The notes under the pieces were generated by a model that worked only from the letters and a program-made list of their open reading frames with translations, did no database searches and had not been told where the DNA came from. Below are positions 1 to 61,995 of a DNA stretch of 64,000 nucleotides, piece by piece. Source of the stretch: Squalus acanthias (Eukaryota). A program made the position numbers and the translations under genes. Within the stretch, counting starts at the first letter, position 1; every line of letters starts with the position of its first letter. The DNA lies in contig JASTWF010000034.1 in NCBI GenBank assembly GCA_030390025.1, positions 4,154,001-4,218,000 on the forward strand, given 5' to 3'.

Positions 1-3000
1 CACTGAGAAATAAAGTTACAGTAAATTGTTAATTTGACATCATAACCTCTACACCGGAGAATAATTTTACAGTTAATTGTTAATTTAGACATGATATCCT
101 CTACAGCACAGAATAAAGTCACAGTTATTTTTTTATTTGGCATGATATCCTGTACAAAAGAGAACAATTTTACAGTTAATTTTTAATTGACATAATATCC
201 TCTACACCGGGGAATAAAGTTAATTTAATTGTTAATTTGACATGATATACTCTACACTGGTTAAAAGAATTACGGTTAATTGTTAATTTAGACATGATAC
301 CCACTACAATGCGGGATAATGATGCAACTAATTGTTAATTTTTACATGATGCTCTCTACACCGGGGGATAAAGTTACAGTAAATTGTTAATTTGATATGA
401 TACCCTCTACACCGGGAAATAAAGTTACAGTTAATTGTTAATTTAGACATGATACCCTGTACACCAAAGAATAAACTTACTGTTAATTCTTGAATTTACA
501 TGATACCCTCTACACTGTGGAATAACATTACAGTCAATAATCTCTACACTGGGGAATAATGATACATTTAATTTGAAATGCAACCCTCTACACTGAGAAA
601 TAAAGTTACAGTTAATTGTTAATTTGATATGATACACTCTGCACCGTGGAAAATAGTTTCAGTTAATTGTTAATTTTGACATAATGCCCTCTACACCGGG
701 GATTAAAGTTACAGTTACTTGTTAATTTTGACATGATTCCTGCTACATCGAGGAATAAAGTTACTGTTATATGTTGATTTGACACGATACCCTCTACATC
801 AGTGAATATAGTTACCCTTAATATTTATTTTGACATGAAGCCCTCTACAACGGTGAATAAAGTTACAGATAATTGTTAATTTCGATATGATGCCCTATGC
901 ACCGGGGAATATAGTTACGTTTAATTGCTAATTTTGACATGATACCCTGTATACCGGGGAATAAAGTTACAGTTAATTGTTAATTTAGACATGATTCCCT
1001 GCACACCATAGAATAAATTTACAGTCAATTGCTAATTTTCACATGATATCCTCTACACTTTGGAATAATGTTACAGTTAATTGTTAATTATGCCATGATG
1101 CCCGCTACACTGGGGAATAAAAATATTTAATCTTTAATTTGACATGAAAACCTCTACACTGGGAATTAAGTTAAAGTTGATTGTTAATTTTACATGATAC
1201 CTTCTGCACAGGGGAATAAAGTTACAGTTAGTTGTTAATGTAGACATGATTCCCTCCACACCGGGGAATAAAGTTACAGTTAATTGTTAATTTTATATGA
1301 TGCTCTCAACACCGGAGAATAAAGTTGAAGTTAATTGTTAATCTGTCATGATACCCTATACACTGGGGAATAAAGTTACATGTAATTGTTAATTTGACAT
1401 GATATCCTCTACACCGGGGAATAAAGTTACATTTAATTGTTAATTTATACATGCCACCCTCTGCACCAGAGAATAAAGTTACAGGTAATTGTTGAATTTA
1501 CATGATACCCTCTACACCGGGGAATAAAGTAAAAGTGAATTTTTTTATCATGATAATCTCTACACAGAGGAATAAAGATACAGTTAATTTGAAATGATAC
1601 CGTCTACACCGGGGAATAAAGTTACAGTTAATTGTTAATTTCGACATGATGCCCTCTACCCTGGGGAATAAAATTACAGTTAATCGTTAATTAAGACATG
1701 ATTCCCGGTATTCCAAGGAATGAAGTTACAGTTAATTGTTAATTTACACAAGATACCTTCGACACCGTGGATTAAAGTTACAGTTAATTGTTAATTATGC
1801 CATGATGCCCGCTACACTGGGGAATAAATATATTTAATCTTTAATTTGTCATGAAAACCTCTAAACTGGGAATTAAGTTAAAGTTGATTGTTAATTTTAC
1901 ATGATACCTTCTGCACAGGGGAATAAAGTTACAGTTAATTGTTAATGTAGACATGATTCCCTGCACACCGGGGAATAAAGTTGCAGTTAATTATTAATTT
2001 AGACATGATTCCCTCCACACAATGGAATAAAGTTTCAGTCAATTGCTAATTTTGACAAGATACCCTCTGCACTGTGGAATAATGTTACAGTTAATTGCTA
2101 ATTTTGAAATGAAGCCCTCTACACCGGGGACTAAAGTTACAGTCACTTATAAATTTGACATGATACACTCTACACCGGGGAATAAAGTTAGAGTTATTTG
2201 TTAATTTGACATGATGTCCACTAACCTGGGGAATATATTTAAAGTTATTTGTTAATTTGTGATGAAAACCTCTAAACTGGGGAATAAAGTTATAGTTGAT
2301 TGTTAATTTTACATGATAACCTCTGCACTGGGGAACAAAGTTACTGTTGATTGTTATTTTTAAATGATAACCTCTACACCGGGGAATAAAGTTACATTAA
2401 ATTGTAAATTTAGATATGATGCCCTCTACACCGAGGAATAAGATTACATTTAAATGTTAATTTGACATGATGCCCTCTACACCGGGGAATAAAGTTACAG
2501 TGAATTGTTAATTTAGAAATTATTCCCTCTAAACCGGGGAATAAAGTTACACTTAATTGTTAATTTGATATGATACACTCTACACCGGGGAGTAAAGTTA
2601 CAGTGAATTGTTAATTTAGAAATTATTCCCTCTAAACCGGGGAATAAAGTTACACTTAATTGTTAATTTGAATTATACACTCTACCCCTGGGAATGAAGT
2701 TACAATTAATTGTTTATTTGACATGATGCCCTCTACACCGGGGTATATAGTTACAGTGAATTGTTAATTTAGAAATGATTCCCTCTAAACCGGGAAATAA
2801 AGTTACACTTAATTGTTAATTTGACATGATGCCCTCTACACCGGGTTATAAAGTTTCAGTTAATTGTTAATTTCGACAGGAGGCCCTCTACATTGGTGAA
2901 TAAAATTACAGTTAATTTTTAATTTAGACATGATACCTTTTAAACTGGGGAATAAAGTAAAAGTTACTTTTTAATTTGTCATGATGCCCTCTACACCAGG

Positions 3001-3689
3001 GAATATAGTTACGGTTAATTGCTAATTTTGACATGATACCCTGTATACCGGGGAATAACGTAACAGTTAATTGTTAATTTAGACATTATTCCCAGCACAC
3101 CATAGAATAAAGTTACAGTCAATTGCTAATTTTGGCATGATATCCTCTACAATTTGGAATAATGTTACAGTTAATTGTTAATTTTGCCATGATACCCACT
3201 ACACTGGGGAATAAATTTAAATTTAATTTTTAATTTGTCATGATGACCTCTACACTGAGAATAAATTTACAGATGATTGTTAATTTTACATGATACCTTC
3301 TACACTGGGGAATAAAGTTAAACTTGATTGTTAATTTTACATGATACCTTCTGCACAGGGGAATAAAGTTACAGTTAATTTTTAATTTAGACATGATTCC
3401 CTGCACACCGGGGAATAAAGTTATAGTTAATGGTTAATTTAGGCATGATTACCTCTACACAATGGAATAAAGTTTCAGTCAATTGCTAATAATGACATGA
3501 TACCCTGTACACTGTGAAATAATGTTACAGTTAATTGTTAATTTTGACATGAAGCCCTCTACACCGGGAAGTAAAGTTACAGTTACTTGTTAATTTGACA
3601 TGATACACTCTACACTGGGGAATAAAGTTACAGTTGATTGTTAATTTTACATGATACCCTCTACACTGGGCATCACAGTTACATTTGAT

Positions 3690-6600
3690 TGTTAATTTTA
3701 CATGATAACCTCTACACCGGGGAATAAAGTTACATTGAATTGTTAATTTAGATATGATACCCTCTACGCCGCGAAATAATGTTACAGTTAAATGTTAATT
3801 TGACACAATTCACTCTACAACGTGGAATAAAGTTACAGTTAATTGTTAATTTGATATGATACCGTCTAAACCGGGGAATAAAGTTACAGTTCATTGTTAA
3901 TTTTATATGATGCCCTCAACACCGGGGAATAAAGTTTAAGTTATTTGTTAATCTGTCATGATACCCTCTGCACTGGGGAATAAAGTTACATTTAATTGTT
4001 AATTTGACGTGATATCCTCTACACCGGGGAATAAAGTTACATTTACTTGTTAATTTATACATGATACCCTCTGCACCAGAGAATAAAGTTACAGGTAATT
4101 GTTGAATTTACATGATACCCTCTACACCGGGGAATAAAGTTAAAGTTAATTGTTAAGTTCGACATGATACACTCTACACCGGGGATTAAATTAAAAGTCA
4201 ATTTTTCATATGACATGATGCTCTCGGCACAGGGGAATAAAGTAATTGTCAATTGTTAATTTAGACATGAAACCCTCTACAGTAGAGAGTAAATTTACAG
4301 TTAATTGTTAATTTGACATGATATCCTCTGCACTGGGTAATAATGTTAAATTTAATAGTTAATTTGACCTGTTGCCTCTGCATCGTAGAATAAAGTTACA
4401 GTTAATTGTTAATTTGACATTATGCACTCTACACCGGGAAATAAAGTTACAGTTAATTGTTAATTTAAACATGATACCCTCTACACTGGGGAATAAAGTT
4501 ACAGTTAATAGTTAATTTAGACATGATGCCTTCTACACAGGGGAATGCATTTACATGTAATTGTTAATTTAGACATGATGCCCTCTGCATCGGGGAATAA
4601 CGTTACTGTTAATTGTTAATTTAGACAGGATTCCCTCAACACCAGGGAATAAAGTTTCAGTTAATTGTTAAATTGACATGATGCCCTTTACGCAAGTGAA
4701 TATAGTTACACTTAATATTTAATTTGAAATGATGCCCTCTACAACGGGGAATAAAGTTACAGTTAATTGTTAATTTAGACATGATGCCCTCTACACCGGG
4801 GAATAAAGTTACAGTTAATTGTTAATTTTATATGATGCCCTCTACACCGGGGAATAAAGTTAGAGTTAATTGTTAATTTGACGTGATATCCTCTACACTG
4901 GGGAATAATGTTAAAGTGATTTTTTAATTTGTCATGATACCCTTTTCACTGGGGAATACTGTACCAGTCAATTGTTAATTGTTAATTTAGACAGGATTCC
5001 CTCAACACCGGGGGATATAGTTACAGTTATTTGTTAATTTTAACATGATGCCCTCTACAACGAGGAGTAAAGTTACCGTTAATTGTTAATTTGACATGAT
5101 ACCCTCTACGCCGGGAATAAAGTTACTGTTAATTGTTAATTTAGAAATGATTCCCTCTACACCGGGGACTACAGTTACAGTTACTTGTTAATTTGATATG
5201 ATACACTCTACACCAGGGAATAAAGTTAGAGTTAGTTGTTAATTTGACATGATGCCCACTAAACTGGGGAATATATTTAACGTTATTTTTTAATATGTCA
5301 TTAAAACCCCAACACTGGGGAATAAATTTTCAGTTGATTGTTAATTTTACATGATAACCTCTACACCGGGGAATAAAGTTACATTGAATTGTTAATTTAG
5401 ATATGATACCCTCTACGCCGCGAAATAATGTTACAGTTAAATGTTAATTTGACACAATTCACTCTACAACGTGGAATAAAGTTACAGTTAATTGTTAATT
5501 TGATATGATACCGTCTAAACCGGGGAATAAAGTTACAGTTCATTGTTAATTTTATATGATGCCCTCAACACCGGGGAATAAAGTTTAAGTTATTTGTTAA
5601 TCTGTCATGATACCCTCTGCACTGGGGAATAAAGTTACATTTACTTGTTAATTTATACATGATACCCTCTGCACCAGAGAATAAAGTTACAGGTAATTGT
5701 TGAATTTACATGATACCCTCTACACCGGGGAATAAAGTTAAAGTTAATTGTTAATTTCGACATGATACACTCTACACCGGGGATTAAATTAAAAGTCAAT
5801 TTTTCATATGACATGATGCTCTCGGCACAGGGGAATAAAGTAATTGTCAATTGTTAATTTAGACATGAAACCCTCTACAGTAGAGAGTAAATTTACAGTT
5901 AATTGTTAATTTGACATGATATCCTCTGCACTGGGGAATAATGTTAAATTTAATAGTTAATTTGACCTGTTGCCTCTGCATCGTAGAATAAAGTTACAGT
6001 TAATTGTTAATTTGACATTATGCACTCTACACCGGGAAATAAAGTTACAGTTAATTGTTAATTTAAACATGATACCCTCTACACTGGGGAATAAAGTTAC
6101 AGTTAATAGTTAATTTAGACATGATGCCTTCTACACAGGGGAATGCATTTACATGTAATTGTTAATTTAGACATGATGCCCTCTGCATCGGGGAATAACG
6201 TTACTGTTAATTGTTAATTTAGACAGGATTCCCTCAACACCAGGGAATAAAGTTTCAGTTAATTGTTAAATTGACATGATGCCCTTTACGCAAGTGAATA
6301 TAGTTACACTTAATATTTAATTTGAAATGATGCCCTCTACAACGGGGAATAAAGTTACAGTTAATTGTTAATTTAGACATGATGCCCTCTACACCGGGGA
6401 ATAAAGTTACAGTTAATTGTTAATTTTATATGATGCCCTCTACACCGGGGAATAAATTTAGAGTTAATTGTTAATTTGACGTGATATCCTCTACACTGGG
6501 GAATAATGTTAAAGTGATTTTATAATTTGTCATGATACCCTTTTCACTGGGGAATACTGTACCAGTCAATTGTTAATTGTTAATTTAGACAGGATTCCCT

Positions 6601-48045: not shown

Positions 48046-51000
48046 TCTAAACCTGGGAATACATTTACTGTGAATTGTTAATTTAGACATGATTCCCTCT
48101 ACACTGGGGAATAAAGTTACAGTTAATTGTTAATTTTGAAATGATGCCCTCTATACCGGTGACTAAAGTTACAGTTAATTGTTAATTTCGAAAAGATGCC
48201 CTCTACATTGTTGAATAAAGTTTCAGTTAATTGTTAATTTCTACAAGATGCCCTCTACATTTTTGAATAAAGTTACAGTGAATTGTTAATTTCGACATTA
48301 TTCCCTCTACACCGGGGAATGACGTTACAGTTAATTCTTAATTTGACATGATGCACTCTGCACCGGGAATAAAGTAACAGTTAATGGTTAATTTAGAAAT
48401 GATTCCCTCTACACCGGGGAATTACAATTACAGTTAATTGTTAATTTGACATGATGGCTTCTACACCATGGAATAAAGTTGAAGTTGTATTTGATATGTT
48501 ACGCTCTACACCAGGGAATAATGTTGCAGTTAATTGGTAACGTAAACATCAAACCCTCCACACTGGGGAATAAAGTTACAGTTTACTGTTAATTTAGAAA
48601 TGAGATCCTCTACACCAGGGAATAATGTTACCGTTAATTGTTAATTTGACATGATACCCTCTACACCGTGGATTTAAAATTACAATTAATTGTAAATTTG
48701 ACATGATGCCCTCTACACCAGGGAATAAAGTTTCAGTTATTTGTTAATTTCGACTAGATGCCCTCTACATTGGTGATTAAATTTACAGTTAATTGTTTAT
48801 TTGACATGATGCCCTATTCACCTGGGTATACATTTACAGTTAATTGTTAATTTAGATATGATATCCTCTACAACAGGGAATAATATGACAGCTAATTATT
48901 ACCTTAAACATCATACCCTCCACACCGGGGAATATAGTTACAGTTAATTGATAATTTTGACTTGATGCTCTCTACACAGGGGAATAAAGTTACATTAAAT
49001 GCTTAAGTTATACAAGATGACCTCTACAACGAGGAATAAAGTTACAGTTAATTGTTCATTTAGAAATGATACCCTCTAAATCGAGGTATAAAGTTACAAT
49101 AAATTGTTAATTTGACATGATGCCCTCTACACCTGGAGTAATGTTAAAGTTAATGGTTAATGTAGAAATGATTCCCTCTGCACCGAGGAATTCAAATTAA
49201 AGATAATTGTTAATTTGACATGATTTCCTCTACACCGGGGAATACAGTTACAGTTAATTTTTAACTTAGACATGATGCACTCTGCACTGGGGAATAAAGT
49301 TACACTTAATGTTTAATTTGACATGATGCCCTCTACAGCGGGGAATAAATTTACAGATAATTGTTAACTTGGACATGATGCCCTCTACACAGGGAATAAA
49401 GTTACATTAAATTGTTAATTTAAACATGAGAACCTCTTCACCGGGAAATAAAGTAATAGTTAATTATTAATTTGACATGATACCCTCTACACCGGGGAAT
49501 AAAGTTACAGTCAATTGTTAATTTCGACAAGATGCCCTCTACGTTGTTGAATAAAGTTACAGTTAATTGTTAATTTAGACAAGATGTACTCTACACCTGG
49601 GAATACATTTACAGTGATTTGTTAATTTAGACATGATACCCTCTACACTGGGTAATAAAGTTAGAGTTAATTGTTAATTTGACATGATGCCCTCTGCATC
49701 GGAGACTAAAGATACATGTTAATTGTTAATTTGACATGATACACTCTACACCGGGGAATACAGTTAGAGTTAATTGTTAATTTGACATGATGCCCTCTAC
49801 ATTGTTTAATAAAGTTACAGTTAATTGCTAATTTAGACATGATTCCTTCTACACCAGGGAATGACGTTAAAGTAAATTATTAATTTAGAAATGATTCCCT
49901 CTACACCGGGGAATGTCGTTACAGTTAATTGTTAATTTAGAAATGATTCCCTCTACACCGGGGAATTGAAATTACAGTTAATTGTTAATTTGACATGATG
50001 CCCTCTACACCGGGGAATAACGTTGACGTTAATTTTGTATTTGATATGTTATCCTCAACACCACGGAATAATTTTACAGTTAATTGTTAACGTAAACATC
50101 AGAAACTCCACACCGGGGAATAAAGTTACAGTTAATTGTTAATTTGACATGATATACTCTACACCTTGGAATTAAAATTACAATTATTAGTTAATTTGAC
50201 ATGATGCCCTCTACACCGGGGAATAAAGTTTCAGTTATTTGCTAATTTAGACATGATATCTTCGACACCGGGGAATAAAGTTACAGTTCATTTTTAATTT
50301 GTCATGATAACCTCTACACTGGGGAATAAAGTTAGAGTTGATTGTGAATATGACACGAGGCCCTTTACACTGGAGAATACTGTTTCAGTCCATTGTTTAT
50401 AAGATTTGTTATCCTCTAAGCTGGGGAAAACAGTTACAGTTGATTGTTAATTTGAAATGATATCCTCTACACCGGGGGAAAAAGTTACAGATAAATGCTA
50501 ATTTGACATGATTGCCTCTGCACCGGGGTATAAAGTTAAAGTGAATTGTTAATTTAGACATGATTCCCTCTACACCGGGGAATGAAGTTAAAGTTAATTG
50601 TTAATTTGACATGATGCCCTCCACAACGGGACTAAAGTTACAGTTAATTGTTAATTTAGAAATCATTCCCTCTTAACCAGGGAATAAAGTTACAGTTCTT
50701 TGTTAATTTTACATGATAAACTCTACACCAGTGAATGAATTTGCAGTTAATTGTTAATTTCGACATGATACCCTCTACAACGGGAAATTAACATTATAGT
50801 TATTTGTTTATTTGACATGATGTCCTCTACAACGGGAAACAAAGTTACAGTTAATTGATAATTTGACATGATACCCTCTACAAAGGGAAATTAAAATTAC
50901 AGATAATTATTTATTTGACATGATACACTCTACAGCGGAAAATTAAAATTACAGTTAATTGTTAATTTCGACATGATGTCCTCTACACCGGGGAATAAAG

Positions 51001-52159
51001 TTAGAGTTAATTGCTAATTTAGACATGATACCCTGTACAACGGGAAATTAAAATTACAGTTAATTGTTTATTTGACATGATGCCCTCTTCACCTGGGTAT
51101 AAAGTTACAGTAAATTGTTAATATAGATATGATATCCTATACACCAGGGAATAATGTTACAGTTAATTGTTAACTAAAACATCATACCCTCCACACCGGG
51201 GAATGTAGTTACAGTTAATTGATAATTTTGACTTGATGCTCTCTACACCGGGGAATAAAGTTACATTTAATTGTTAAGTTATACAAGATGCCCTCTACAA
51301 CGGGGAATAAAGTTACAGTTAATTGTTAATTTAGACATGATACCCTCTAAGCCGGGGTATAAAGTTACAATTAATTTTTAATTTGACATGATGCTCTCTA
51401 CACCGGGAATAAAGTTACAGTTCATGGTTAATATAGAAATGATTCCCTCTACACCGGGCAATTAAAATTACAGTTAATTGTTAATTTGACATGATGTCCT
51501 TTAAACTGGCGAATATAGTTACTGTTAATTGTTAATTTGACATGATGCCCACTACACCGGGGAATAAATTAACTGATAATTGTTAACTTAGACATGATGC
51601 CTTCTGCACAGGGAATAAAGTTACAGTAAATTGTTAATTTAGACATGAGAACCTCCACCGGGAAATAAAGTAACAGTTAATTATTAATTTGACATGATGC
51701 CTTCTACACCTGGGAATAAATTTACAGTGAATTGTTAATTTAGACATGATTCGCTGTACACTGGGGATTAAAGTAACAGTTAATTGTTAATTTCGACCTG
51801 ATACCCTCTACACTGGCGAATTAAAATTACAGTTAATTGTTAATTTGACATGCTGTCCTCTACACTGGGGAATAAAGTTACAGTTAATTTTGTATTTGTT
51901 ATATTACCCTCTACACCAGGGAATAATGTTACAATTAATTGTTAATGTAAACATCAAACCCTCTACACCGGGAATAAAGTTACAGTAAATTGTTAATTTA
52001 GGCATGATACCCTCTACAACGAGGAATAATGTTACAGATAAATGTTAATTTGACATGATTGTCTCTGCACCGGGGAATAAAGTTAACGTGAATTGTTACT
52101 TTAGACATGATTCCCTCTATTCCGCAGAATTAAGTTACAGTTAATTGTTAATTTGACAT

Positions 52160-52743
52160 TGTTGGTAAAAAATGAATTCACTTGAGTCTGTCTCAAAGCA
52201 GAAGATCACAGTTTATTTAACAGAGCGCATTGGGAGAAGAGCCATACACCCCGCGGTCTAGTAATCAACTTCTCGTCGTTACAGTGGTATCGGAACTTCT
52301 TTTAGACATTATAGAGCCGGATACGCAATTCATTACATACAAATGTCTCCACCAAATCACATTCCCCTAGCAACAAGCCCCTTACCCAATCATATATCTC
52401 CACCACTGACTTAATTATAATCTGCACTATAAGCTAAACTTTCTTGTTACTTCTCTTCCGAAACTGAAAACATACAGAGTGTTGCGCCACATTTGCTTGG
52501 CCGGACTGGCTAGTCATGCGGTGATTGATTCTCAATTGTAACCGTTGGGCTATTATCGTAGTCTTTTGTTCCTTATTGGTGGGCTTCAGCTATCTCGCAC
52601 GTACGCATGTTGACAGTAGACATTACTCATCACACTGTTTCAGAGAAGCCATCTGTCTTGTCTTATTTACGAGTTCACCTTTTACAGCACGTTCTTTAAA
52701 TCTTTACGTTGCTTCTTTAAGCCCTATAATTTACACCCTAACA
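52160..52743 (-). repeat. 3' LTR (584 bp)
   Basis: Minus strand begins TGTTAG (52743) directly after PPT and ends CCAACA (52160); AATAAA at 52212-52217; homologous to 57968-58320. Confidence 0.92.
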
Positions 52744-52753
52744 GTCCCTCCTG
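52744..52753 (-). promoter_or_regulatory. Polypurine tract
   Basis: Minus strand ...CAGGAGGGAC|TGTTAG immediately before the 3' LTR. Confidence 0.75.
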
Positions 52754-52937
52754 TTGGTCCCTGATCAAGACTCTTTTCTGACAGGGAACCAGCATCATGC
52801 GGATTTCTGGTAATGTAAGTAGATCTTTGATACAGCATTTGGCAGTACTTCTTCGTATTCTGGCCTGATGTTCTGTATGTTTACATTCCAGGGGCTCACA
52901 GTCCGTTAGTCAGACTGTGGCATCCTTGTATACGGAC

Positions 52938-54068
52938 TCATATCCACACATTTCTCTCTCCAGGTGTCAATTGGTTAACCATCATGACACTTACAGCATG
53001 CCATGACATTTGAGCGCAACAACATTTTAACAATAGGACCAGACCATACATCACTAATATTATAACAAAGAACAAAATCAATCCTTGTACTACTGATGTC
53101 CCGAGTGATCCCAACCATCCAGTTGCCCAGCCCCAAAGGGTGGATGCTGGAGGTTGTTTTAATTTTTTTTACTTCTTCCTGTATGCGTGATGCCAAGTCA
53201 GTTATTGCTTCCGAGTTGTCTGGTATGTAGGTGCAGCATTTTGTACCTATTAGGGCACAGGTTCCCCCTTTTACTGCCAACACATAGTCAAGGGCCATCC
53301 GATTTTGTAGAGCTACTGTGCGGAGGGCTGCCATGTCTGCATTAACCTTAACTAGGGCTTCAGTAGTATCGTTGGCCACCTGCTGCAAGACGGGGGCCAG
53401 GTTAATGGATTCCCTTGCCAATTTACCAGCTCCATACCAGGAGAACGCAATTGCCCAGAATCTTTCAGTCTCCGTGATGGCTCGTCTGGCTCTCCCGTGG
53501 AGGTCCTTCAGTGAACCCATGTGTTATATGTAGCGTTCAACATAAGCCAGATAACAAGAACCCGTCCATTCCCGGGGCAACCAGGGATAGGCCCTATGAC
53601 CGCACACGAAATGAGTCCCGTTGTAGGGGGTATACTTATTTACCTCTGGGGGGTCCGATTGTACCTCGTTCTCAGGAACGGTGGTAGATAGGAAGCGTTA
53701 TATGTTGACTGTGTCCACCCACTACAATATTCTGAGTTGTACCCATGACGTTGGAGCTTTGCCATAGTGATGCCGTCTGTCTTGGCTTCATAACAGCCCT
53801 CACTTGTGCATCCTGCTCTAACTCCAAACATCTAACTGACCGTCTCATCATCACTATGTGGGATTGGTTGTAGGGGGACTCCGTCCTCCGAGTGCGTGGG
53901 GACATGGGCGCAGACCCAACAGCTGGCAACATCAACTCTCTTGGCATATGTGTATGACATATATAAAAAGGTGTTCACCCGTAACCCTGTTTTGGCCCAT
54001 GGGGGCACTCTAGCCTGAGTCCTCCCGAGGCTACATATTATGATTATACAAACAAGAAAACTACACAT
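52938..54068 (-). pseudogene. env: Gamma-type retroviral envelope, disrupted
   Basis: Signal peptide MCSFLVCIIIICSLG, CWVC (CXXC), NGTHFVCG...WTGSCYL, furin site RARR, immunosuppressive domain LQNRMALDYVLA, CX6CC (CALIGTKCC), and after a frameshift the anchor GLILFFVIILVMYGLVLLL ending TGA at 52938-52940. In-frame stops at 53832, 53640 and ~53526. Confidence 0.95.
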
Positions 54069-54147
54069 GATAGTTAACTTTATGTTAACAATGTCCCAAA
54101 GGCTATATCGCCAACCGAACCACTTTGTTGCTTGTAGATTTTATTTT

Positions 54148-54180
54148 CCTGTGGGGGTGAATAGAATACGGTCATTAGGC
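54148..54180 (-). promoter_or_regulatory. Candidate env splice acceptor with branch point
   Basis: Minus strand CCTAATGACCGTATTCTATTCACCCCCACAG|G: CTAAT branch-like motif, pyrimidine tract, CAG, 80 nt before env ATG. Confidence 0.7.
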
Positions 54181-54402
54181 TGGTTCCTCGATCATAATCA
54201 TTTGGATTCCCTCCTCCTGCTCGACCGATTGGAGTCGATGGGATTGTTCCCATACATACTTCACGATACATCCCATGGCGTATCCCATTATGACAATGCA
54301 TATTGTCCATACCAACGTTCGTACCAGCACCCACTTGCATTCTTTGTATTGTCTAGCGTATTCTTCACTTCCCACAAAAGGTACTTGCTCTGGTGTAGCC
54401 AT
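54175..54402 (-). CDS. 75-aa single-pass membrane ORF between pol and env (candidate accessory gene)
   Basis: ATG two bases after the integrase stop (TAA-AT-ATG, context AATATGG); hydrophobic WVLVRTLVWTICIVIMGYAMGCIV flanked by charged segments; acidic C-terminus. Confidence 0.5.
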   Translation of the reverse strand: MATPEQVPFVGSEEYARQYKECKWVLVRTLVWTICIVIMGYAMGCIVKYVWEQSHRLQSVEQEEGIQMIMIEEPA

Positions 54403-54404
54403 AT

Positions 54405-55270
54405 TTAAGCTGGCGAAGGGTCATAGACTTTTAGCTGTGTCCAGTGCTTCCATCGTCCCATGCCCTTCATATCAATGCAAGCACACGTATCTCCACTAAG
54501 TAAAATCTGATATGGTCCTGACCATTTTGGGGCAAGCTCGGGATTCCCTGGTAAACCTTTAACTATTAACTTAGTCCCGGCTGGAGGGATATATGGGAAC
54601 GCGGTCAATTCTAAATCCTTATCCTTTTCTTCGTGTCTGTCCCGCATTTGCTGCCTCATTTCCTTTAATTGACTGCTAAATTCGAGGACATACCTTCGGA
54701 GCCTATCCTTTAGAGGACCCACATCCTCTCCTCCAGTTATTATGCCATGGGAGAGTTGCATTGCCCTCCCCGTCATTTGCTCATATGGTGATAAGCCCGT
54801 TGTTCGGTTTGGAGTGGCTTTTAGTTTCATTAAGACTGCTGGTAACATATCTACCCAATGTTTGTCCCCTAAAGCCTAGGCTAAGGCTGTTTTCAATGTT
54901 TGGTTCATTCGTTCCATCATTCCAGAACTTTGGGGATTGTACGGAATATGGAATTTCTGCTTATGCCCATCCACTTGCATACATTCTTCACTACTGCTCC
55001 CGTAAAGTGAGTTCCCTGATCTGAGTCAATTTGGATCGGTATTCCCCACCTGGGAATTATTTCCTCTGCCATTATTCGTGCCATGGTGGTGGCAGTACAG
55101 TTCCGGGTTGGGAATGCCTCGACCCACCTAGTAAACTGGTCTATTATTAACAGGCAATACTTCTTACCCCTTGACGTGGGGAGTGGTCCGATAAAGTCTA
55201 TTTGTATAATTTCCCATGGGCCCCTCGGCCGTTGTTGGTGGGCCATCTGTATCTTAACGGGTCGTCCTGT
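54405..55270 (-). pseudogene. pol: Integrase core and C-terminal domain (HHCC domain absent)
   Basis: PWEIIQIDFIGPLP...IDQFTRWVEAFP...IDSDQGTHFT, frameshift near 54960 to HIPYNPQSSGMMERMNQTLK (DDE complete), one stop at ~54876, TGLSPYEQMTGR, WSGPYQIL (GPY/F motif). Confidence 0.95.
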
Positions 55271-55760
55271 TTTGAGGTCGTCCATACTGACTTCATTGCC
55301 TTGCATATATTCCCAAAGTCTCCTTCCTCCTTCCCGTCCCGGGCCAATTTTTGCACTTCCTACTGTTGCCAAATGGCAAAGTGGCTTTCCCCAGTTTACT
55401 TTTTTCCCGTCTCCCTGTACCCAGGTTAACTTTCCTTGTCGTGAATCTATTAACAAATTAAATTCTTTTAACAAATCTATTCCTAAGATAGTCCCCTCAC
55501 TGGTTGGGCATACATAAAATTGTGCGGGTAATAGTTGTCCCGCTAATTCCAATACTTGTACCTCACTTTTAAATGCATGTAAACGCTCCCCTCCCAACCC
55601 CACTATGTCTATCCTTTGTTTGGTGAGGGGAAGGGGGAAAATCGGTAATGGATACAGAAGCTCCCGTGTCTACACACATATCGCACTGCCTGCCCCCTAA
55701 CAGTGCCGGTACATAGACTCTGGGATCTTCCTTCTCCCTCTTGATGGGGGCCGCTGCTAG
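55270..55760 (-). pseudogene. pro: Retroviral aspartic protease
   Basis: In frame after gag TGA: LAAAPIKREKEDPRVYV...MCVDTGASVSIT (DTGA at 55659-55670); 1-nt frameshift in C-run at ~55635; then IVGLGG flap and ILGIDLL. Confidence 0.93.
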
Positions 55761-56684
55761 TCAGTGGTCGCCAACATGTTCCTTTACATACTGCAGGAAC
55801 TTTTGATACATATCAATGGTCCCGGTCTGGTTTGGCTCTTCCTTTTTTGTCCAACACCTCTCGGTTGAATGTCCCGGTCTTCCGCAATTCCCACATACCG
55901 GTCGGTTTTGTTTGGGGGCCCTACATTCTTTTGCCATATGACCCAACTTCCCACAGTTAAAACATGCCCCTTTCTTTCTTTGCGACAGTTCCCGTATTCT
56001 TGCGGCCCCTACTCTTTCTTGTTTTATTACTAGTGTTCGTTCCGCCTCTTTGGCATCTATCTGACACGTCCACTGGACCGCCGCATCATATGTATTCGCC
56101 GGCACTATTCCCATTTTTAATATCGCTTGGTGGGATTGGGACAACCCGTTCTTAAACATTTGAATAAAGGGCTGGTCTGTCATCTGGGGATTTGCTTGTC
56201 CCGATGATTCCTGGTATACGACGAACAATCGTTCGCCATAATAACTACTGCTTTCCCCTTTCCGCTGTTTTATTATCATTATAAGTCCCCAATTTGATGA
56301 GGATCCTCCTAAGGCCGCCTGGACCGCTGCTTTAAAGGGGTTGTAGCCCGCGAGTTGGGCCGCCTTGTCCGCAATTAAGGCGATACGGCTGGTACAGCCA
56401 CTGTCTCGGTGACCGTTTTGGATATCCACCTCCCTCCATTTGTCAGCCGGGCATTTAGCCCGTACCAGCTGGTGGATATCCCGAGGATGGAGGTCGTGGA
56501 TATCCCACATCTCCTCGAGATTTCTCCAAAATTCTCCATTTGTGCTACGGGGCTTCAATGTTCCCAAACCTTTCAATATTGTTTGTGATTCTAAGTGGCT
56601 AAAAGCTTTGTACTTGGCTGTGGTATTCTGTACCGTTCCCTCTCTTTTTAAAGGGGCTGCCTTGACTACGTTTGGGTTCTTTTT
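55761..56684 (-). CDS. gag: Gag capsid + nucleocapsid portion (open frame, 55761-56744 ORF)
   Basis: MHR-like IKQRKGESSSYYGERL, FIQMFKNGL, two CX2CX4HX4C knuckles CFNCGKLGHMAKEC (55923-55964) and CGNCGRPGHSTERC (55854-55895). Confidence 0.93.
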   Translation of the reverse strand, partial: KKNPNVVKAAPLKREGTVQNTTAKYKAFSHLESQTILKGLGTLKPRSTNGEFWRNLEEMWDIHDLHPRDIHQLVRAKCPADKWREVDIQNGHRDSGCTSRIALIADKAAQLAGYNPFKAAVQAALGGSSSNWGLIMIIKQRKGESSSYYGERLFVVYQESSGQANPQMTDQPFIQMFKNGLSQSHQAILKMGIVPANTYDAAVQWTCQIDAKEAERTLVIKQERVGAARIRELSQRKKGACFNCGKLGHMAKECRAPKQNRPVCGNCGRPGHSTERCWTKKEEPNQTGTIDMYQKFLQYVKEHVGDH

Positions 56685-56890
56685 GTGTAATTTCCTAATA
56701 TCTATTTCTTCCACCTGTGCACTGGCTACGTTTTCTTCAACCATTTCTTGTTCAAGAGCTTACTGTGCTGCAAATATCAGCGGCATGGTTCCCTCTTTGT
56801 TCCTGATTTTGTATTTTCTGGTGCGCCTTTATTTTTATTACTGCTGCTAGTGTTGGAGCCTTTGCAGCTTCCAAGAGGGCCTCTACCCTC
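56685..56890 (-). pseudogene. pol: Displaced RNase H C-terminal fragment plus linker
   Basis: Manual translation: RVEALLEAAKAPTLAAVIKIKAHQKIQNQEQRGNHAAD, matching the retroviral RNase H (K/C)xHQ...GNxxAD motif; followed by ALEQEMVEENVASAQVEEIDIRKLH. Confidence 0.85.
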
Positions 56891-57197
56891 CGCTATTAAT
56901 GCAAAATTTGGTATATACCTCCGACTGTTATTAAAGAGTCCTAACACTTTTCTGACCTCACCTTACCGAGACGGGTCTTGGCATCTCTTGGATCGCCTTC
57001 CGTCGGTCTTGTGCCATGGTCCTTACCCCCTGGGACAATTGTTGTCCCAAATATGTGACCGTAGTCTGCCCAATTTGTGCCTTTTTCGGGTTTACTTTGA
57101 ACCCTCCTGTTTCTAGGGCTTGCAGAACCACCACCAGGGCGGCAGCATGCCCTCTGCTGTCTTCTGATGCTATCAACATATCATCTATATATTGTAA
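56888..57197 (-). pseudogene. pol: Displaced reverse transcriptase palm/thumb fragment
   Basis: LQYIDDMLIA (YIDD 57180-57191)...GFKVNPKKAQ...VTYLG...AIQEMPRP, frameshift at ~56961, then EVRKVLGLFNNSRRYIPNFALIAE. Confidence 0.93.
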
Positions 57198-57477
57198 CTC
57201 TTGTTCTAATTCAAGAATTATTTTATTTTTACTTGCAAGTCTAGTGTGGAGTCGCTGCACCTTGTTCGTTAATGCAACAAATTGGTTTACTAGTATTACC
57301 CTCGCCTTTTTCGTCTTTTTCTGTTATTGACCCTCTACCACTCTCTTTTACCTTCGGATTCTGGAGCGGATCCCACCCCTCCTTCGTCATCTTATCAACT
57401 AAACCCTTCCGGTCGTCTGCATAGATCCTAGTAAGGGACCCCATTGGGCCCCATTCTATTTGTTTCCCCGACGCCAT
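57198..57477 (-). pseudogene. gag: Probable Gag N-terminus with coiled-coil start
   Basis: MASGKQIEWGPMG... first substantial ORF after the leader and splice donor; after a frameshift KKTKKARVILVNQFVALTNKVQRLHTRLASKNKIILELEQE (heptad-like). Assignment positional. Confidence 0.65.
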
Positions 57478-57486
57478 TTGCAGTCC

Positions 57487-57504
57487 AACTTACAGTCTTA
57501 CCTG
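57487..57504 (-). promoter_or_regulatory. Candidate major splice donor
   Basis: Minus strand CAG|GTAAGACT|GTAAGT just upstream of the gag ATG. Confidence 0.65.
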
Positions 57505-57947
57505 GTGCTGAGTTCCTCTACTCGGGCTTGTTCTTGATACTTTAAAGACCTTCAATTTGTTAATCAGTCACAACACATATATATATTTGCTGACTGCACG
57601 ATCCCAGGTTGCTTTGGAGCCTCTACGCCTACTTGATCCTGACCATCACGTGGGACTACGTCCTCTTAATTCAGGCTCAGGCTAGGTGTTTGAAACAGGC
57701 ACCCAACTTGTCCGTGTCGTTCCATCACTCACTCATTCCTTTGCGACATTTATCGCTACACAGTGTTCCCTTTAGTACTTGCAATCCACACTCTAACAAC
57801 TGTGTTCTCCTACCTCTCACAGACCTTACTTGATTCTTGTATCTACGGCACTGTCACTCCACCTTTCCAGGTGACTCAATTTCTGGACGGTCAAAATTGA
57901 CTTCTCGTCCGAGTTCACCGGTGCGGGCGGTCTTTCAGGTCCAGAGC

Positions 57948-57965
57948 ATCCTGCCGACTACGCCA
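57948..57965 (-). promoter_or_regulatory. Primer binding site, tRNA-Ser
   Basis: TGGCGTAGTCGGCAGGAT is the exact complement of the vertebrate tRNA-Ser(AGA/TGA) 3' end ATCCTGCCGACTACGCCA; 2 nt from the 5' LTR end. Confidence 0.95.
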
Positions 57966-57967
57966 AT

Positions 57968-58320
57968 TATTGGTGAACAATGAATTCACTCTAGTCTGTC
58001 TCAAAGCAGAGGATCACAGTTTATTTAGCAGAGCATTCTGCGAGAAGAGCCATAGACCCCGCGGTCTATTAATCAACTTCTAGTTGTTACAGTGGTATCG
58101 GAACTTCTTTTATACATTATATGGTCGGGTATGCAATTCATTACATACAAATGTCTTCACCCAATCACATTCCCCCAGCAACAAGCTCCTTAATTATAAT
58201 CTGCACTTTAAGCTAAATTTTCTTGTTACTTCCCTTCCGAAACAATAAACATATGGAGTGTTGGCCAGACTGGCTAGTCATGCGGTGATTGGTTCTGAAG
58301 TGTAACCGTTGTGCTATTAT
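57968..58320 (-). repeat. 5' LTR, truncated at its U3 end
   Basis: Aligns to 52160-52556 with two internal gaps; TATAAAA (minus) at 58108-58114; homology stops at 58320 where CR1 sequence begins. Confidence 0.92.
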
Positions 58321-58958
58321 TGCCATGGCATAGGAGTTTATTCAAGTGCGGGGAGTCAAAAGGACTTTGATAGTGGTCGGCGACTGTATAGTCAGTGGGA
58401 TAGATACTGTTCTCTGCAGCCACGGGCGAGAGTTCCGAAGGTTGTGCTGCCTGCCCGGTTCCAGGGTTAAAGATATCTCCTGGCAGCTGGAGATGAATTT
58501 GGATTGGGAGAGGGAGGATCCAGTTGCAGTGGTCCATGTAGGAACCAAAGACGAGGAATGAGTTTCTGCTGATGGAGTTTGGGGAGCTAGGATCCAAATT
58601 AAAAAGCAGATCCTCAAAAGTAATAATCTCTAGATTAATAGCTAGGCCACGCGCAAATTGGCACAGGGACAAACAGATCCGAGATTTAAATGCGTGGCTA
58701 AAAGTGTGGTGTGGAAGAAAGGGATTTGATTCATGGGGCACTGGCGCCAGTACTGGGGAAAGAGGGAGCTGTTCTGTTGGTACGGTCTCCACTTAAACCG
58801 GGCTGGGACCAGTGTCCTGGGAAATGGAATAACTAGGGCTGTAGGTTGGGTTTGGAACTACAAAGGGTGGAAGTATCAGGTGAGGGGAAATTTAGAAATC
58901 TAAAGAGACACGTCAAGACAATGGAGCAGTGTAGCGATTTGGGTAATTACAAGCAGAG
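58321..58958 (+). mobile_element. CR1 LINE ORF1 fragment (SGNH/GDSL esterase domain), degraded
   Basis: LIVVGDCIV (GDS-like)...CCLPGSRVKDI...VVHVGTKD (GTND-like)...KVIIS...LNAWLKVWCGRKGF...DGLHLN in shifted frame. Confidence 0.9.
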
Positions 58959-60221: not shown

Positions 60222-60756
60222 ATTCATTCATGGGATGTGGGCGTCGCTGGCAAGGCCAGCATTTATTGCCCTTCCCTAGTTGCCCTTGAGAAGGTGGTGG
60301 TGAGCCGCATTCTTGAACCTCTGCAGTTCGTGCGGTGAAGTTACTCCCACAGTACTGTTAGGGAGGAAGTTCCAGGATTTTGACCCAGCGACGATGGAGG
60401 AATGGCGATATACTTTCAATTCAGGATGTTGTGTGATTTGGAGGGGAACTTGCAGGTGGTGGTGTTCCCATGCGCCTGCTGCCCTTGGCCTTCTAGGTGG
60501 AAGAGGTCACGGGTTTGGGAGGTGCTGCCGAAGAAGCCTTGGCGAGTTGCTGCAGTGCATCTTGTAGACACTGCATTTGTAATTAATACACATAGTAATT
60601 AGTACACACTGCATTTGTAATTAATCTACTTAGTAATTTGTACACAATGCAGCCACGGTGGAGGAAGTGAATGTTTAACGTGGTGGATGGGGTGCCAATC
60701 AAGCGGGCTGATTTGTCCTGGATGGTGTCGAGCTTCTTGAGTGTTGTTGGAGCTGT
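60222..60756 (-). mobile_element. 3' end of a second CR1-group LINE family
   Basis: Minus strand APTTLKKLDTIQDKSARLIGTP...MHCSNSPRLLRQHLP...GSKSWNFLPNST, 3' terminus GCCCACATCCCATGAATGAAT. Confidence 0.88.
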
Positions 60757-61995
60757 AATTGCTCCGTTTATCCCCTCATCCCTTTTTAAACAATAGTACA
60801 ACGTTAGCGTTTCTCCAATCCTTTGGCACCACTCCTGTAGCCAAGGAGGATTGAAAAATGATGGTCAGAGCCTCCGCAATTTCCTCCCTTGCTTCTTTTA
60901 ATAGCCTCGGATCGATTTCTACTCTCAAGGATGCTAAACACCTTAATTATACGTCTCTTACTATGTATATACCGTCAAATATTTCACTATCTTCTTCCTT
61001 AACTTCAACGTCATTCGCGTCCCCCTCTTTTGTGAATACAGCTGCAAAGTATTCATTAAGTACCTTACCCACATCCTCCGCCTCCAGACACAGATCACCA
61101 TTTGGTCCCTGATAGGCCCTACTCTTTCCTTAATTATCCTCTTGCTCTTTATGTAATTATAAAAGATCATAATATTTTCTTTGATTCTACTTGCCAGTAT
61201 TTTTTCATGCCTTCTTGTTGCTTTCCTAATTTTCCTCTTAATTTCACCCCTACACTTTCTATACTCTTCTAGGCTTTCTGCAGTATTGAGCTCACGGTAT
61301 CTGATAGAATCTTCCCTTTGTTGCCTTATCTTACCCTGTATGCATCTTGTCATCCAGGGGATTCTAAATTTGGCAGTTCTACTCTTTTTCTTTGTGGGAA
61401 CATGCTTACCCTGAACTACATGTATCTCCCTCTTGAATGCCTCCCACTGCTCTGACACTAATTAACCTTCAAGGAATTGTTTCCAGTGAACTTTTGCTAA
61501 ATCACTTCTCAACCTAGTAAAATTGGCGGTCCCCCATTTTAGAACCCTTACTCCTGTGTTTTTTCTTTGTCCTTATCCATAATTATGCTAAAACGAACTG
61601 AATTATGATCACTGCCCCAAAAATGCTCTCCCACTGATACTCCTTCCACCTGCCCAGCTTCATTCCCGAAAACTAAATCCAGAACTGCCCCGCCCCCCTC
61701 TTGTTGGGCTTGCTACGTATTGGCTAAAAAAAATGTTCTCTAGAATACAATTTAGGAATTCTGTGCCCTCTTGTCTTTTACACTGGTAATATCCCAGTTA
61801 ATATTGGGCTAAATGAAATCTCTCACTATTACTGCCCTATTGTTTTTGCACTTGTCAGAAATTTGCCTACAGATTTGCTCTTCTATCTCCCTCAGACTGT
61901 TTGGGGTCTATAGTACAATCCCAGTACTGTGATTGCCCCTTTTTTTTTTAGTTTGACCAATATAGCCTCATTTGATGATCCTTCTGACATACCAC
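60757..61995 (-). mobile_element. CR1 LINE ORF2 fragment (APE endonuclease end, linker, start of RT), internally deleted
   Basis: YRP (~61905), GSDHN (~61605), WEAFK...PWMT...KIRKATRRHEKILA...IFYNYIKSKR...VGPI (ORF 60961-61458), IFQSSLATGVVPKDWRNANVVLLFKK (~60785-60860). Confidence 0.9.

Follow-up and report, generated by a model that had tools for sequence, protein, structure and literature searches.

Families of defective, helper-dependent retroviruses are well known, and to our knowledge nearly all of them are simple deletions. In single-cycle retroviral vectors and in oncogene capture, deletions, insertions and backward jumps arise at short identities during minus-strand synthesis on two co-packaged RNAs; however, these are events of the laboratory or of single transforming viruses, whereas the family described here became a germ-line family. 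Among germ-line elements, excerpts of one account (PMC6466679) present the mouse ETn/MusD and IAP 1-delta-1 elements as LTR elements without a working pol that are copied by the proteins of full-length relatives, with ETn and IAP 1-delta-1 outnumbering or out-performing their coding-competent partner. Excerpts of a second (PMC6112702) describe recKoRV, recombinants of the koala retrovirus with an older retroelement. In plants, modules of LTR retrotransposons are reshuffled between co-packaged RNAs, giving hybrid non-autonomous families at hundreds of loci, as reported in excerpts of two further sources (PMC1950507, PMC13570524).

The endogenous retrovirus (ERV) considered here lies in the window, that is, the whole stretch of 64,000 nucleotides of Squalus acanthias DNA that was analysed, and is one copy of a mobilised, non-autonomous ERV family with a permuted gene order. 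As far as the excerpted account of the mouse elements goes, the in-frame gag-pol fusion that an internal deletion produced in IAP 1-delta-1 resembles two in-frame joins of the present family (a/c and b/e, described below), but the mouse elements carry simple deletions or replacements that keep the gene order, whereas here a 530-bp pol block (1.4 kb in the form called type II) stands upstream of the capsid/nucleocapsid (CA/NC) part of gag and the protease (PR) (PMC6466679). Moreover, mobilisation in trans is experimentally proven in the mouse and we only infer it for the present family, and the ERV class differs, the present family having a gamma-type env and gag-stop-pol in one frame (PMC6466679, from the same excerpts). 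With recKoRV, so far as its excerpted description allows the comparison, the family shares an early disabling by recombination followed by remobilisation to many loci; recKoRV, however, swaps in sequence of a foreign element, whereas the present family rearranges its own lineage, and only its type IV has a foreign insert, of 1.3 kb (PMC6112702). The plant cases in the excerpts concern Ty1/Ty3-type elements and TRIMs, and are mostly swaps of LTRs or internal regions between families, or multi-LTR complexes, in contrast to a vertebrate ERV in which blocks are permuted within the genome and all intermediates are preserved (PMC1950507, PMC13570524). The open-access literature searched yielded no germ-line ERV family with a permuted gene order, though one may exist in print.

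The provirus occupies positions 52160-58322 of the window on the minus strand, on which all of its features lie, and it is dead, with broken open reading frames (ORFs). In the sense direction it reads LTR, primer-binding site (PBS), gag N-terminus, reverse transcriptase (RT) palm/thumb, RNase H end with integrase (IN) linker, gag CA/NC, PR, IN core, env and LTR. The 5' LTR (57968-58322) is about 170 bp short at its 5' end relative to other copies, in which LTRs measure 511-551 bp; family homology ends at 58322, and because of the truncation this copy's own target duplication cannot be read. The 3' LTR (52160-52747), with the family ends TGTTAGG...CAACA, is preceded by a purine-rich run, and the two LTRs are direct repeats whose matched blocks are 89-92% alike. 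The PBS, TGGCGTAGTCGGCAGGAT (57948-57965), begins 2 nt past the LTR end, and the same motif follows the 5' LTR in other copies.

Several features of the surroundings deserve mention. A tandem satellite with periodicities of 51 nt and about 150 nt (50000-52157) adjoins the 3' LTR, and in L044, an unrelated copy, the 3' LTR is followed by an array 67-73% similar to it. The 5' LTRs of the window copy (at 58322) and of another unrelated copy (L158:1865) start at nearly the same internal position, corresponding to parent positions 980-984, and the 1 kb upstream of the window's truncated LTR had no match in the sequence upstream of L158. Further, a run of ORFs of up to 166 aa at 60583-61461 (minus strand) is unrelated to the provirus.

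Between the LTRs, the coding remnants fall into blocks that are lettered here a to e by their order in the parental lineage. Block a ends with the gag N-terminus (57198-57477), which starts at an ATG at 57477; the ORF at 57241-57489 begins VGLQMASGK, and the region is collinear with the parental copy L115 up to L115 position 2124. Block c (56889-57197) follows and runs from the RT palm with its YIDD motif to the thumb and the start of the connection; its DNA is 92-95% identical to parent 4257-4565. Positions 147-205 of the 205 of the Pfam profile RVT_1 match residues 40-96 of the ORF at 56958-57323 (E 2.5e-10), and a phmmer search with this ORF gave 1039 hits at E<=0.001 among 1.84 billion representatives. 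In nearly all of them the best stretches start at query residues 41-44, which indicates that the first 40 residues, before LQYIDD, are not RT. Block d (56672-56894; 91-95% DNA identity to parent 5447-5667) holds the last approximately 45 residues of RNase H (..KAHQK..GNHAAD) and the linker at the N-terminus of integrase. Pfam returned no hit for the 46-aa ORF at 56755-56892 (..VIKIKAHQK..GNHAAD..), which nevertheless aligns by BLASTP (E 2e-10) to residues 652-696 of P0001, a relative's pol, a region that is the C-terminal end of PF00075 (RNase_H) in intact copies. Block b (55265-56684) contains gag CA/NC with CCHC knuckles (zf-CCHC in the ORF at 55761-56759), the gag stop at 55761-55763, PR with DTGAS and the first approximately 45 residues of RT; its identity to parent 2326-3745 is 94-97% for copies of parental subgroup A and 91% for subgroup B. 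Block e opens with the integrase core and C-terminal part (54405-55269; rve, E 1.4e-13), in which a match to MLVIN_C is weak and under the Pfam cut-off, and continues with an env remnant (52975-54400) that is broken by stops, matches TLV_coat (E 4.5e-8 on the ORF at 52975-53523) and has a transmembrane (TM) part with a CX6CC-type motif. By ORFs and Pfam, the window thus gives, in sense order, a 332-aa ORF with a CCHC knuckle, the DTGAS protease motif, rve and a gamma-type TM.

The original prediction, drawn from the letters of the window, had placed RT and RNase H pieces inside gag in a scrambled minus-strand order, and Pfam, phmmer, BLASTP and alignment to the parent bear this out to within a few bases. 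The profile check that it proposed succeeded in part: RVT_1 was found, while the RNase H piece gave no Pfam hit and was recognised through BLASTP to P0001 instead.

The canonical lineage from which the family derives is present in the same genome. A search for longer homologues of the RT-piece ORF produced 537 candidates, none at E<=0.001. With the IN-core ORF as query, P0001 was obtained, a pol of 914 aa with 77% identity across the aligned part of the query. The 150-residue RT N-terminus of P0001, a region absent from the window element, has 13,929 first-look candidate places in the genome. The lineages nearest to P0001 (L045-L074) were rejected as the parent: DNA identity over 57196-56910 is only 66-67%, and no more than 7 of the 30 loci could be aligned in that part. 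Of ten representatives of further lineages, nine were likewise not the parent. L077, one sampled representative, is canonically ordered, and its PR, RT piece, RNase H end and IN core match those of the window at 93-96% identity. Across all blocks, the parental lineage so recognised (L077 and L115-L126) shares 91-96% identity with the window, and it keeps the canonical order. The same genome holds about 14-17 parental copies: the RT N-terminal DNA of L077 has 17 places at >=93% identity, 12 of which were fetched at 10 kb each, and these 17 places stand against at least 65 loci of the window type (type III). RT-bearing open frames measure only 256-868 aa in all 13 scored places of the parental lineage, compared with 1185-1187 aa in other lineages, and all nine parental stretches that were read through have breaks in pol or have lost part of it. 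Other lineages, with 66-78% DNA identity where their blocks can be aligned, contain open frames of 1181-1187 aa; such frames occur at many places, an indication that large and seemingly young relatives of this ERV group exist in the genome.

Alignment to the parental copy L115 reduces the rearrangement to a simple scheme. The parental order is a-x1-b-x2-c-x3-d-x4-e and that of the window is a-c-d-b-e; the segments x1 to x4 are lost and no block is duplicated. Block a (L115 980-2124) corresponds to window 58322-57195, b (2326-3745) to 56684-55265, c (4257-4565) to 57197-56889, d (5447-5667) to 56894-56672 and e (5915 onward) to 55269 onward, while x1 (201 bp in L115), x2 (511 bp), x3 (881 bp) and x4 (247 bp) are absent from the window.

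The joins were mapped by aligning both parental donors, taken from the canonical lineage, to each of them, and every join lies on 3-13 nt of microhomology between the donors, in most copies with no filler or inverted DNA. Join a/c (57195-57197; TTA) is in frame (..ELEQE[L]QY(I/V)DD..). Join c/d (56889-56894) is out of frame and reads AGCAG in most copies, the window copy having private substitutions there. The backward jump is join d/b (56672-56684), an imperfect microhomology of about 13 nt (about 11 of 13), which is in frame (..IRKLH[K]KNPN..). Join b/e (55265-55269; CAGGA), between PR and IN, is in frame as well, with the ORF at 54917-55669 reading across it, and removes everything from the RT fingers/palm through the IN zinc finger. 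By our arithmetic, three joins of four would be in frame by chance with a probability of about 0.11, which is not significant.

These joins recur across the genome. At up to two mismatches, a 26-nt pattern over a/c gave 69 matches, a 25-mer over c/d 84, a 27-nt pattern over d/b 46 and a 28-nt pattern over b/e 68, and reversed control patterns gave none. The 25-mer of the window's own c/d join was discarded as a family pattern, since the private changes there left it matching only the window and its duplicate (2 further matches); the version present in 15 of 29 loci was used instead. By coordinates, the matches cluster into 113 loci, 65 of them type III-like, and 31 carry all four joins in order, at spacings of about 312 and 206 nt and, in most, about 1416 nt; deletions or insertions in individual copies account for the other values of the third spacing. 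The 731-bp stretch that contains three of the joins (56600-57330) is present at full length in 40 of 40 scored matches, at 93-100% identity on many contigs; the search had 563 first-look candidates, and a 41st match is a 188-bp fragment. Next to the type III element at L020 (contig C1, about 3.11 Mb), 188 bp of the RT piece are present a second time, in inverted orientation. In the 29 other loci first fetched, a/c, c/d and d/b are each spanned within 15 nt on either side in all 29, the alignment being gapless at the three joins in 27, 28 and 27, and the PR/IN join is spanned in 22, with no hit in six and a partial hit in one. On contig C22, at about 25.03 Mb, one copy has a/c and d/b 462 nt apart without the standard c/d join; its RT piece, about 20 nt longer, suggests an independent x3 deletion at other breakpoints.

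That the copies integrated independently is evident from their flanks and ends. Fourteen copies were fetched at about 8.3 kb each, and in 11 of them the interior is collinear with that of the window, the differences being small indels or insertions, a deletion in L042 and an indel near 53435-53664 that is common among them; in L035 and L036 the alignment stops within the fetched stretch at about 54600 and 53664. The flanks differ among the fetched copies except for L041 and the satellite-like flank of L044. L041 is a segmental duplicate of the window locus, flanks included, 220 kb away on the same contig at 94-98% identity, and has an internal inversion corresponding to window 54398-55751. Perfect 5-bp target duplications, differing between copies, occur in seven of the eight copies with both ends readable, and the eighth matches at four of five bases, so that for these eight copies shared flanks or a lack of own target duplications is contradicted. 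A usable LTR pair was present in 10 of the 14 copies (L035 gave satellite noise only, and L032, L036 and L043 had none in the stretch), and the type III pairs are 89.8, 96.4, 98.7, 96.5, 92.4, 95.5, 98.0, 95.3 and 91.8% identical.

Contigs of other public runs bridge the joins with at least 31 letters on each side: c/d in X1, X8 and X4, a/c in X8 and d/b in X18, runs X4 and X18 carrying organism codes other than that of X1. Loose ends at 57198, 56678 and 56684 continue into the gag and linker sequence of the parent, which is what divergence from canonical copies should produce, and among the contigs listed for X9, X11, X15 and X20 none extended at least 31 letters to either side of a join. The stretch is contained in no run that is recorded as RNA, and the RNA status of X4 and X8 is only guessed, so their bridging contigs say nothing on expression.

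The original prediction had put joins near 57197, 56889 and 56685, the first and last in frame; each lies where it was expected, at 57197-57195, 56894-56889 and 56684-56672, the two frames hold, and the PR/IN join at 55269-55265 has been added. Its suggestion that one backward jump plus several forward deletions had occurred agrees with a-c-d-b-e against the parental order, and its wider expectation, that the same joins elsewhere would reveal a mobilised non-autonomous family, was borne out by the full-length matches, by 46-86 pattern matches per join with none in the controls, and by the copies' own target duplications.

The sequence features place the family among class I (gamma/epsilon-like) endogenous retroviruses. 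It has paired LTRs with TG...CA ends (TGTTAGG...CAACA), a PBS 2 nt downstream and 5-bp target duplications; Pfam finds zf-CCHC, RVT_1 and rve in the window, and RNase_H, Integrase_H2C2 and rve in parental and type I ORFs. In L122, L123 and others, gag ends ..GGGH at a stop and LAAAPIKREK.. follows in the same frame, giving gag-stop-pol in one frame. The window element keeps the LTR, PBS and leader, whereas 511 bp for the RT fingers/palm, 881 bp for the connection and the greater part of RNase H, and 247 bp for the IN zinc finger are absent. Lacking these enzyme parts, elements of the window type cannot copy themselves, and copying in trans by helper proteins of full-length relatives is the presumed route.

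The coding state of the copies is consistent with decay. A private frameshift in the window's gag N-terminus puts the gag ATG in a different frame from YIDD; the frame from the gag N-terminus through YIDD, 176 aa long, has stayed open in five of the 13 copies examined, and the CA/NC ORF of 332 aa in two of them. All type III copies examined share a 1-nt frameshift after ..PRPVSVR, and types II and III have a stop between the RNase H end and the linker that is absent from parental L115 and type I L157. One copy, L037, has a 226-aa ORF that reads through d/b, and L157 has a 580-aa ORF with the C-terminal end of RVT_1, RNase_H and Integrase_H2C2. In the 13 copies there was no sign of selection on the open frames, whose survival is about that of neutral decay by a rough estimate.

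Moreover, the genome holds related forms that carry subsets of the same joins, and the junction sequences are identical across all of them. Type I, a/c-x3-d-x4-e, is represented by L157 and L160. Type P, a-x1-b/e, comprises L163/L128, L136, L139, L150 and L151. Type II, a/c-x3-d/b/e, is permuted and keeps the whole stretch from thumb to RNase H (L158 and L161, with L159 being a type II with an extra deletion), and type III, a/c/d/b/e, is the window type and the commonest. The 30 loci with a canonical gag middle comprise five of type P, recognised by the b/e join, 14 with a deletion between parent positions 2979 and 5426, and 11 that are parental or cut by the stretch. The 2979/5426 deletion defines a second, non-permuted deletion family, in which gag extends to parent 2979 and then continues as the RNase H end from about 5426 (L130, L131, L140-L149, L153 and L154). 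A query over the borders of x2, c and x3 found 14 full parental matches and six that start at or near c and continue into x3.

A variant lineage at the c/d join, type IV (L164-L172, about 21 loci), reads a/c/d up to parent 5617, then 1.3 kb of foreign DNA and a 280-bp PR piece joined to late IN-env, with LTRs only 71-85% like those of L115. Its insert (for example L170:5171-6475) has no match among the ERV copies compared; by eye against P0001, the last 65-aa ORF of the insert resembles the RT connection of a divergent lineage.

Taken together, the window element belongs to a multi-copy non-autonomous family, and the permutation likely came about by template switching of RT at microhomologies between co-packaged RNAs of the same lineage, a reading to which we assign a probability of roughly 0.72. 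The permuted order, joins of single origin on microhomologies, independent integration and the loss of enzyme parts are observed; the mechanism of the joins and the order of events are read from the structure of the surviving forms and are put forward conditionally. Two simple deletion derivatives, type I and type P, would have arisen first, and both survive. A polymerase making the minus strand from a type P RNA may then, on reaching the start of b, have jumped back to the end of d on a co-packaged type I RNA, and the product would be type II, which is still present. A further deletion at c/d would turn type II into type III, the window type, and full-length relatives would presumably have provided in trans the Gag-Pol with which all forms were packaged and copied. 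The existence of single-join and three-join intermediates indicates that the joins can arise separately, so that the scramble may have been stepwise. Against this order of events, type II could have given rise to types I and P by frequent homologous recombination with the parent, and against template switching itself, DNA end joining leaves microhomology just as typically. Against copying in trans by the parental lineage stand its short RT-bearing open frames.

The first of these objections can be developed into a possible, though distinctly less probable, course of events, in which the permuted form came first. A type P or full-length RNA would have gained a c-x3-d patch from a co-packaged full-length RNA by two non-homologous switches in one round of reverse transcription, and types I and P, or type I alone, would be later homologous recombinants of type II with the parent. 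Each join being a single shared event, with junctions identical in all forms, speaks for such a course; so does the oldest sampled LTR pair, which belongs to the type II copy L159 (85.3%, against about 95% for types I and P), and the tree of blocks c and d, which puts the type I copies and the type II copy L158 among the parents, as recombinants with parental sequence would be. However, it requires two or three illegitimate switches per cycle in addition to extra homologous crossovers, the branches concerned have weak support (85/83 and 87/86), and the sample with LTR pairs is tiny, at two type I, three type II and one full type P. Between the forms the LTR identities overlap (type II 85.3-97.7%, type I about 95%, type P 95.1%, type III 89.8-98.7% and parent 86.9-99.4%). 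Trees were star-like for block a, for block b and for blocks c and d together; they place all forms with parental subgroup A (100/100 against subgroup B) and show no order among the forms.

An origin at the level of DNA appears unlikely. In that case the permuted element would have been built by microhomology-mediated end joining, acting on unintegrated viral DNA or on an integrated provirus, or else by illegitimate recombination of two proviruses, and would then have been transcribed and mobilised. Microhomologies of 3-13 nt also mark alternative end joining, and sequence alone cannot separate the two routes. Nevertheless, four joins in one lineage, several of them also found singly in mobile derivatives, fit better with a process that recurs in each round of replication, and most copies have no LTR remnants, inversions or filler DNA at the joins. 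Retroviral reverse transcription, moreover, makes deletions and insertions of this kind in single cycles.

Template switching between co-packaged RNAs, the preferred reading, can be extended in a direction that we consider highly speculative. Two complementary defective genomes, one without gag-PR-RT and one without RT-RH-IN, would have been fused by a single backward jump, and the product would have out-copied both of its parents and the full virus. The 176-aa ORF of gag N-terminus and RT thumb, or the pol RNA placed behind the leader, would give a cis advantage in packaging or copying, comparable to that of the gag-pol fusion of the mouse IAP 1-delta-1. The retention of the a-c-d block even in the mosaic type IV would fit such a role. 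Finally, no support was found for the idea that a single provirus had decayed locally or been misassembled, for which only the window's private c/d mutations and private gag frameshift could be named. The idea is refuted by dozens of loci, spread over more than 25 contigs, at which the same joins come with target duplications of their own, and by the presence of the joins in contigs of other public runs.

The main value of the family lies in the full set of intermediates that has been preserved. The genome keeps a complete series, from the parent and two single-deletion derivatives through a permuted recombinant with the whole of RNase H and a trimmed permuted form to a later mosaic, and the identical junction sequences tie this series together. 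The trimmed permuted form, type III, is the most successful of the series, which as a whole is a natural record of illegitimate recombination building new retroelement architectures. Such permuted families are also a warning to annotators, as ERV callers that depend on gene order will split or misfile them. Provided that the copies were indeed made in trans, as their lack of enzymes suggests, the gene order between the leader and the 3' end would be dispensable for packaging, reverse transcription and integration.
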